64,000 nucleotides of DNA from a phage (GCA_024790105.1 GCA_024790105.1_3053.1); one strand, 5' to 3'. Shown: positions 54,642 to 55,981, numbered from the stretch's first letter. Made by a program: numbers and translations. Notes: generated by a model from the letters alone, not told the origin.

Positions 54642-55421
54642 TTAATTAAAAATATATACTTCATCAGTTCCATTCTTTTCTTTGGAATGATATATGTTAA
54701 AGACGTATTTTTTATTAAGATGCTTAACATTATATTTTTTAGACCATTCTTTAAGAAGAGTGTTTTCCTTTCCGTGATGCTCTAAAACATTCGACAGTCC
54801 AAATTTTATTCCTCTATCATTTAAAGAATCTAAAAGATTTAAAAGGTCTTTTTCTTCATCTTCTGACCAAAATTTATTATAATCAGCAACTGTTATAAGA
54901 TACGGAGGATCTACATATACAAAATCGCCGTCTAGAATTTTGACATCTTTAAAATGCAATGAACTAAAGATTATTTTATCACAATTTTGTTTAAAGTGAT
55001 TAAAGCGTTTTTCACTATTTTTGTTTATAGTTCTTTTTCCAAACGGAGTAGTAAAATTTCCTTTATCGTTTATACGAATCATATTACTAAACCCGTGAAA
55101 ATGAAGAACATAAAGTAAAAGAGGATCTCTAGTTTTATTATAATCTTCACGTAATTTCAAAAACTCTTCTTTTGATGTTTTTGATAGTTTATATTGCTTT
55201 ATTACTTTTAAAACGTCATCCCATGATACATTAATAAGACGCTTATACATTTCAATAATTGGTTCTTGAATATCATTGGCCAATACAGGACCATTGACGT
55301 TCAAAGACACTGATAAACCTCCACAAAATAAATCCACGAATCTGTCATATTTTGGAAAGTGAGGCTTAAGTTCAGGTAATAATGACTGTTTATTACCTGT
55401 ATACGCGATAGCTCCTAGCAT
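54642..55421 (-). CDS. dam: DNA adenine methyltransferase Dam
   Basis: 259 aa; N6-adenine MTase catalytic motif DPPY (YVDPPYLIT); SAM-binding FxGxG-like LFCGGLSV. Confidence 0.85.
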
Positions 55422-55981
55422 TATATTCTCTCATTTATTGCAGCAAAAAATGAATTATACAATTCATCATCATATGTATTTGATAGTAATACTAACACGT
55501 TTTGTGATTTAGCATATTCATTAAACCTTGCTTGGATGGTTGGATTATCAGTAAATGATTCTCTTTTTGTCCATTTATTACGTGGATAATATCCGCATGG
55601 CAAAAAATCTAATATCATCAATGACACAGGGTTTTCAGTTTTTGTGTATTCTTTTAATTTCTCTTTATCTTCTAAATATATTCCAACCGAATCAATAGCT
55701 GTACCTCCACCAACTTGATGTTTAATTTCAATTATATGCTTTTTACCGTTGCGAGAAATAACAATATCAAATCTTCTAGTACGCTTTTTAGTTATAAAAT
55801 TCGAACAAAACAAATTATTTGATTTTTCAGTATCATCGGTTAAAACCATTTTTTCTTGATAACTAACTGAACAATCAGTGAAATATTCTTTTACTTTATT
55901 AAGTATGAAATTTTCAACTACGGCAGATATTTTATATGAATCTCCGTTTAAAGCCATTTCATGCACAATTTTATTAATCAT
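55421..55981 (-). CDS. hypothetical protein, possible PD-(D/E)xK nuclease-like fold
   Basis: 186 aa; candidate motif [17 protein letters not shown] (D...ExK); stop overlaps the dam start (TAATG). Confidence 0.4.

Follow-up and report, generated by a model that had tools for sequence, protein, structure and literature searches.

The Dam methylases of phages T2 and T4 are among the best-studied DNA methyltransferases. Both are GATC-specific by experiment, and T4 Dam, which is dispensable, has been treated as a stand-alone enzyme; to our knowledge, the role of these methylases in the phage has never been clear. Among described systems in which a GATC methylase has a nuclease as its partner are those of the DpnII/MboI kind, whose GATC-specific, methylation-sensitive enzymes have DpnM-type Dam partners, and R.CviAI/M.CviAI of a chlorella virus, a virus-encoded GATC restriction-modification (RM) system. 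Here we describe a stretch of 64,000 nucleotides of phage DNA (GCA_024790105.1, record GCA_024790105.1_3053.1), called the window below and numbered from its first letter, in which an open reading frame (ORF) for a 186-aa protein, ORF186, runs into the start of dam. We conclude that ORF186 is very probably a small nuclease resembling restriction enzymes, which moves together with Dam in a cassette of two genes.

The window is a segment of a Tequatrovirus (T2/HY03-like) genome, and the 3.4 kb around ORF186 are 97.7% identical to phage HY03. Its Dam differs from that of T2 by one residue and from that of T4 by five. Like the CviAI system, the locus would place a GATC methylase and a nuclease in a lytic virus, and the logic we propose is also one in which viral DNA is protected and other DNA is cut. 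Unlike the chlorella virus case, the hosts of T-even phages are Dam-methylated, and degradation of host DNA is not an obvious role for ORF186. No structural or sequence relationship between ORF186 and the chlorella virus system was detected. The likeness to DpnII/MboI lies in the partner of ORF186, which is also of the D12 Dam class with GATC specificity. Unlike in DpnII systems, the nuclease gene stands first, the two genes overlap and the cassette has no second methylase.

A restriction-enzyme-like gene joined to dam

ORF186 (55421..55981, minus strand) begins with ATG, preceded at 8 nt by a GAGGA Shine-Dalgarno sequence, and dam (54642..55421, minus strand) encodes a 259-aa Dam-family N6-adenine DNA methyltransferase (Pfam PF02086, E 8e-51; TIGR00571, 235 bits against a cut-off of 115). 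The two genes meet in a TAATG junction (55419..55423, minus strand), in which one base is common to the ORF186 stop (TAA, 55423-55421) and the dam start (ATG, 55421-55419); the minus strand reads GAGAGAATATAATGCTAGGA. An earlier note on this DNA had described a 186-aa ORF ending in this way on the dam start, and the ORF list and the minus-strand sequence both bear it out. The stop/start overlap points to translational coupling, by which any synthesis of the nuclease would bring with it that of the methylase.

ORF186 is a real gene under constraint. PHROG 8706 (function unknown) matches it end to end (E 1e-115), and 164 phage records have a tblastn match to it, for the most part at ≥98% identity; the allele of the window is full length, and many tens of isolates hold copies that are identical or 99.5% identical to it. 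Diverged homologues, at 29-64% identity, come from metagenomes and Klebsiella phages. In comparisons with these, synonymous sites approach saturation at a pN of 0.26-0.37, and dN/dS, where computable, is 0.18-0.32, indicating purifying selection; conservation and dN/dS together rule out a chance reading frame. The family is tiny: among 1.84 billion representative proteins, a profile search gave 11 matches, nine of which (E ≤ 1e-10) are apparently full-length or fragmentary family members. Almost all GenBank records label the product 'hypothetical protein', while the record of vB_EcoM_Shinka (MZ502379.1) already annotates it as 'putative DpnII restriction endonuclease'. A literature search found no publication on ORF186 or its characterisation.

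The AlphaFold2 model of ORF186, built on a nine-sequence alignment (mean pLDDT 90.3, pTM 0.85), has a core of helix, three antiparallel strands, helix and strand, which is the PD-(D/E)xK core fold. Foldseek comparison of the model with the PDB gave TM-scores of about 0.4, and all meaningful matches were PD-(D/E)xK nucleases. VC1899, R2 endonuclease domains and Bax1 stood on top of the ranking; the best and longest structural match was MunI, a type IIP enzyme of similar size (200 aa), and the neighbours of the modelled fold are mostly classical type IIP enzymes. Among the viral folds of BFVD, the sole strong match was the family's own member MX01. The likeness to MunI and EcoRI (type IIP, PD-(D/E)xK, alpha-class) is thus a structural one. 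Unlike these enzymes, ORF186 is encoded by a lytic phage and is partnered by a Dam-type GATC methylase, not one of the AATT family.

Invariant columns and strand assignment delimit a predicted catalytic core at aa 67-99 (55685..55783, minus strand), which contains R-R-F-D72-IVI and H-I-I-E85-I-K87, with D72 in strand 67-77 and E85 and K87 in strand 80-88 of the model, while E23 (codon at 55913-55915, minus strand) lies on the first long helix. These four residues are invariant in 10 family sequences, down to 29% identity, as are R69, H88, Q89, G93-T-A-I-D-S98 and D125. ORF186 therefore has the acidic residue on strand 2 and the (D/E)xK on strand 3 that define PD-(D/E)xK enzymes. From a hydrophobic strand followed by D…E-x-K, the earlier note had tentatively proposed such a nuclease, to be checked by profile and structure comparisons. 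The peptide in question is aa 71-87, its three residues (D72, E85, K87) lie on adjacent strands of the model and are invariant across the family, and the assignment is now backed by the fold, by these residues and by sub-threshold profile matches to DpnII and type II restriction endonuclease (REase) families; no non-nuclease fold appeared among the meaningful structural matches. Catalytic activity is a prediction from sequence and model.

The profile matches are as follows. Pfam DpnII (PF04556, profile length 278, gathering threshold 23 bits) matches ORF186 at 16.7 bits (E 0.0046), aligning aa 28-113 with profile positions 152-235, and Pfam BanI gives a sub-threshold E of 0.009. In the set of 10 family members, DpnII matches four, with a best E of 8e-5 and a match that spans the catalytic core; BanI matches four and PDDEXK_11 three, and the PADLOC type II REase model PDLC03548 (REase_II) also matches three (best E 5e-6). 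DpnII is the one curated family whose signal recurs in the ORF186 family, and a remote relationship between the two is possible. The local E-I-K-H-Q of ORF186 has the same pattern as E111-A-K113-H-Q of EcoRI (whose sequence was checked against PDB chains), without statistical significance: hhalign of the family against EcoRI aligned 9 residues only (IIEIKHQVG/VAEAKHQGK, E 0.13). We regard this E-x-K-H-Q likeness as a resemblance and not as evidence of homology, and the EcoRI-like GNAIER/GTAIDS resemblance as an unproven lead. Three family assignments were rejected. For membership of Pfam DpnII the match is too low in score and too partial, for the EcoRI/MunI sequence family there is no detectable sequence homology, and a Seg/Mob homing endonuclease is contradicted by the PD-(D/E)xK fold and by the absence of GIY-YIG and HNH from the Pfam, PHROG and NCBIfam scans.

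The association with dam extends well beyond close relatives. At all nine homologous loci read, which include the window, L003-L008 and L013 and reach down to ORF186 homologues of ~30% identity, the gene of a D12 Dam-family methylase abuts or overlaps the end of the ORF186 homologue, with stop/start overlaps of 0, 1, 4, 7, 20 or 35 nt; at one of the nine, L005, the methylase gene is frameshifted. Adjacency of nuclease and methylase is thus kept among homologues as in type II RM systems, which supports the RM-like pairing supposed in the earlier note. The pair is found at two genome positions, namely between gene 61 (primase) and gene 56 (dCTPase) in Tequatrovirus-type genomes (window, L007, L008, MX01) and at denB-ndd/topoisomerase in Klebsiella T4-like phages (L003, L005); in L004 a 726-aa protein comes after it, perhaps a topoisomerase large subunit, to judge from a weak GHKL-ATPase match. 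Across pairs, the identities of nuclease and methylase rise and fall together (r 0.6), and the methylase is the better conserved of the two. That ORF186 is a REase-fold nuclease functionally tied to Dam is a conclusion in which we have high confidence.

Gain, loss and decay of the cassette

In Tequatrovirus, ORF186 and dam are together present or absent as an indel of about 1.45 kb. The 3.4 kb around ORF186 find a partial match in 703 phage records, which share the gene 56-gene 61 region, and in 184 of these the ORF and dam are matched at the DNA level: about 149 records have both genes and about 33 have dam with an 87-nt ORF remnant, as in T4, while no record with the ORF only was seen (60 of the 184 ranked records listed). 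By these matches most Tequatroviruses appear to be without the cassette. In T6, RB3, PP01 and others the site is empty; gene 56 is then directly followed by a small opposite-strand gene, and gene 56-gene 61 measures 1981 bp as against 3401 bp in the window, or ~1.42 kb less. Alignment of the boundaries with the empty site of T6 gives the promoter-ORF186-dam cassette an approximate extent of 54602..56050 (minus strand).

Several phages hold dam beside a damaged nuclease gene. In T4 a ~480-bp deletion takes the promoter and ORF186 codons 1 to ~158 and leaves dam intact. The earlier note had left open whether T4 has a homologue at this position: there is no intact one, the deletion having left only the last ~28 codons, and T4 thus offers a remnant of the ORF and not a characterised non-nuclease protein. 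KarlGJung (Bas37) has lost 371 bp of ORF186 between two GATGAT repeats, and in G4500 the loss of one base in an A-run (five A, against six in the window, about 55850) splits ORF186; dam is intact in both. Near the 3' end of ORF186, alignments show a run of T (55445..55450, minus strand) whose length varies between phages, with six T in the window, five in T2 and in the T4 remnant, and eight in KarlGJung. The one-base loss in T2 turns the C-terminus FFAAINERI into LLQ* and shifts the stop 14 nt upstream of dam. Homopolymer runs in ORF186 act as hot spots of frameshifting, by which the nuclease is turned off.

Judged from the sequences, the lesions of T4, KarlGJung and G4500 clearly destroy ORF186, while that of T2 replaces only the last residues. 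These four lesions of the nuclease gene are independent, and dam is intact beside each of them. Since the T4 remnant shares the five-T allele of T2, the frameshift may well have preceded the T4 deletion. The asymmetric decay typical of type II RM systems, in which the nuclease is lost, the methylase is kept and the reverse is rare, is therefore seen here as well, with one counter-example (L005, see below). As an optional nuclease gene between conserved genes, with presence/absence polymorphism and frequent decay, ORF186 resembles the seg/mob homing genes of T-even phages, and like them it could bias inheritance in mixed infections. Unlike them, it is of the PD-(D/E)xK and not the GIY-YIG/HNH kind, and the cassette brings its own methylase instead of relying on target-site disruption.

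A promoter-like site (56007..56035, minus strand), found by consensus scan 25 nt upstream of ORF186, consists of TTTACT, a 17-nt spacer and a TG-extended TATTAT (9/12 consensus matches), and the preceding G gives GTTTAC. We take GTTTAC with an extended -10 to be like the early promoters of T4. Two GenBank records annotate a promoter at the equivalent site. The regional count of promoter-like sites is not above that of shuffles, and the consensus match by itself is no proof of an ORF186 promoter.

In the order gene 61, ORF186, dam, gene 56 of the minus strand, the flanking genes were placed from the ORF list and library scans, gene 61 (primase) at 56269-57297 and gene 56 (dCTPase) at 54063-54596. 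On the plus strand, opposite to all its neighbours, an ORF for a predicted 66-aa membrane protein (56072-56272; PHROG 2024, E 8e-31) borders on the cassette and has 4 nt in common with the 3' end of gene 61. Provided with a strong AAGGAGG ribosome-binding site, it is called Dam.1 in the T6 record; its DNA is kept in T4, where NC_000866 gives it no annotation. A terminator-like hairpin of the minus strand (56084-56109) lies within this ORF. On the other side of dam, segF, the GIY-YIG homing endonuclease gene that adjoins gene 56 in T4, is absent from the window (53854-54596 compared with T4), and a 70-aa ORF (53854-54066) that overlaps the 3' end of gene 56 stands in its place. Among close relatives, optional nuclease genes have thus entered the gene 56-gene 61 neighbourhood independently at least twice.

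A proposed target of the nuclease and role of Dam

We propose that ORF186 would be an Mg-dependent PD-(D/E)xK endonuclease of the type IIP kind, with a MunI/EcoRI-like fold and a faint DpnII sequence signal, and that this small REase of homodimeric type and the translationally coupled Dam would form a two-gene, RM-like cassette of T-even-type phages. Both genes would probably be transcribed early, from the cassette's own promoter. ORF186 would cut unmethylated GATC in DNA without phage protection, possible targets being co-infecting phages, plasmids, and hosts or replicons without Dam methylation, while Dam methylation, and probably glucosyl-hydroxymethylcytosine as well, would protect the GATC sites of the phage itself. 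Since phage DNA is modified before it is injected, a nuclease-first gene order would be harmless. The cassette would be gained and lost as a unit, and its decay would usually take the nuclease and leave an orphan Dam, as in T4. We infer cleavage of unmethylated GATC, and its blockage by Dam, from the GATC specificity of the partner methylase and from DpnII as the sole family with a repeated sequence signal; the specificity in particular is read from the near-identity of the partner with T2 Dam together with the weak DpnII signal. Blockage by N6-methyladenine, early expression, coupling and the biological target are likewise putative elements of the proposal. Taken as a whole, with GATC cleavage and methylation sensitivity included, it is one towards which we lean, if only slightly.

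Several observations weigh against the proposal. ORF186 falls below the score for DpnII/MboI membership (16.7 against 23 bits) over a partial stretch of the profile, is ~100 residues shorter than DpnII, and found nothing at E ≤ 10 among PDB chain sequences with either the family profile or its catalytic segment. The classical literature records viable T2 dam mutants, but the T2 nuclease is the C-terminal frameshift allele. The recorded hosts (Escherichia, Shigella, Salmonella, Yersinia and Klebsiella) are Dam-positive, so that the host chromosome offers a methylation-sensitive GATC enzyme little to cut. All known carriers are probably hydroxymethylcytosine phages, in which self-protection might not need Dam. 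A look-up of gp42 was aimed at cassettes in ordinary-cytosine phages, which would force Dam-based self-protection; it found a homologue of ~70% identity in Klebsiella T4-like phages of the same size as the carriers. T4 DNA, moreover, resists 94% of the type II enzymes tested in vitro (PMC7653180). Lastly, L005, a metagenome contig related to Klebsiella phage SmallBear_ER8, has an intact ORF186 homologue and a methylase start at the overlapping position, and its methylase has a 10-bp frameshifting deletion (3760-3790 of the contig) at the FxGxG region that binds S-adenosylmethionine. It is the only case seen of an intact nuclease with a broken methylase, unexpected if unmethylated phage DNA is cut, though the deletion may be an assembly artefact.

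Much of this would fit an active nuclease that tells self from non-self by cytosine modification and degrades cytosine DNA like T4 endonucleases II and IV, with the linkage to dam a matter of common descent from an ancestral RM unit and not of present dependence. The resistance of T4 DNA, the apparent hydroxymethylcytosine of the carriers, the Dam-positive hosts that leave a methylation-sensitive enzyme nearly targetless, the ORF retained in L005 with its broken methylase and the position of the cassette directly beside denB in Klebsiella phages all speak for such an enzyme. Yet no lineage, even at 30% identity, has lost the overlap, nor was it lost when the pair moved to a second locus, and the Tequatrovirus records listed include none with the ORF and without dam; because the overlap is preserved in genomes that freely shuffle small genes, descent alone is hard to accept, and we consider this explanation unlikely. 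The Dam-positive hosts would also suit a DpnI-like enzyme, which would find in their chromosomes an abundant target of Dam-methylated cytosine DNA, with glucosyl-hydroxymethylcytosine sparing the phage and Dam ensuring the mark. The methylase linkage would still make sense, and a preprint reports that phage-induced breakdown of the host chromosome releases m6-dAMP (bioRxiv 10.64898/2026.01.15.699771). The model, however, has no winged-helix or methyl-reading domain, all 186 aa forming one REase core, and such sequence hints as the family gives lead only to methylation-sensitive enzymes of the DpnII type; a DpnI-like activity is in our view very unlikely.

The use of GATC in these genomes bears on a further alternative. 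Measured against expectation, GATC is the rarest of all 256 tetranucleotides in the window (60 observed, 214 expected; 0.28), an avoidance that is striking in a phage with its own Dam. We rejected it as a sign of cassette action, since it is as strong in cassette-less T6 (0.36 in the 40 kb of L023) and is known in enterobacteriophages (McClelland, 1984; Deschavanne and Radman, 1991, both as cited in PMC5014478). It would be expected if GATC-directed nicking mattered, as in a REase fold that serves other ends than sequence-specific restriction, be it as a structure-specific nuclease, in repair or recombination, or in MutH-like nicking with Dam-marked strands. The place of VC1899, the R2 domains and Bax1 at the top of the Foldseek ranking agrees with such a role, but the best and longest match is to MunI, a bona fide type IIP enzyme, and the avoidance is no property of cassette carriers; we hold this alternative to be distinctly unlikely. 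Strict linkage and overlap, the lack of a methyl-reading domain and the type IIP neighbours make it, and the two active-nuclease alternatives above, less likely. That ORF186 is a relic in this phage, decaying or without function and no longer active, is highly improbable. The lesions in T4, T2, KarlGJung and G4500 and the many Tequatroviruses without ORF186 would agree with decay, but the window allele is full length and widely shared, the catalytic residues are invariant over deep divergence and dN/dS is well below 1.

Within the proposal of an RM-like cassette that cuts unmethylated GATC, we also considered, tentatively and as a rather unlikely case, that the cassette is a phage-against-phage weapon or gene drive, with ORF186 cutting the GATC sites of co-infecting Dam-less T-even relatives. 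ORF186 would then tolerate hydroxymethylcytosine, its targets would be the T6-like genomes that form the majority, and Dam methylation would protect the genome that carries it. Competitor genomes, once cut, would either be lost or be mended with the cassette-bearing genome as template, and the cassette would spread.

T-even Dam as part of a cassette

The relatives of T-even Dam on plasmids are of two kinds. The closest (L017-L020), at 39-43% identity, serve as the methylases of AlwI-type (GGATC-family) restriction systems of Lactococcus and Enterococcus, and Dam homologues on enterobacterial plasmids are at about 22-31%. A walk along the neighbours of the plasmid homologues, in which a DpnII-family seed was sought, met AlwI-type enzymes or unrelated proteins. 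There are hints in these sequences that T-even Dam descends from the methylase of a restriction system and not from host Dam.

The comparison of loci suggests that Dam entered the T-even phages as half of a nuclease-methylase cassette, and that T4 Dam is the surviving half of a phage-borne RM unit. The Dam of T4 and T2 would be recast as the orphan of a phage RM cassette whose intact allele is held by natural isolates, and, if this is true, the nuclease would have gone unnoticed because the copies in T4 (deletion) and T2 (C-terminal frameshift) are damaged. ORF186 would add a very small, sequence-orphan family of restriction-like enzymes, possibly with useful properties on modified DNA. It is also a candidate mechanism of exclusion between related phages, which would be relevant to therapeutic cocktails that contain several Tequatroviruses. 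Should the cassette indeed act in competition or as a drive, it would supply the missing biological role for the Dam of T2 and T4 and may contribute to the extreme avoidance of GATC.
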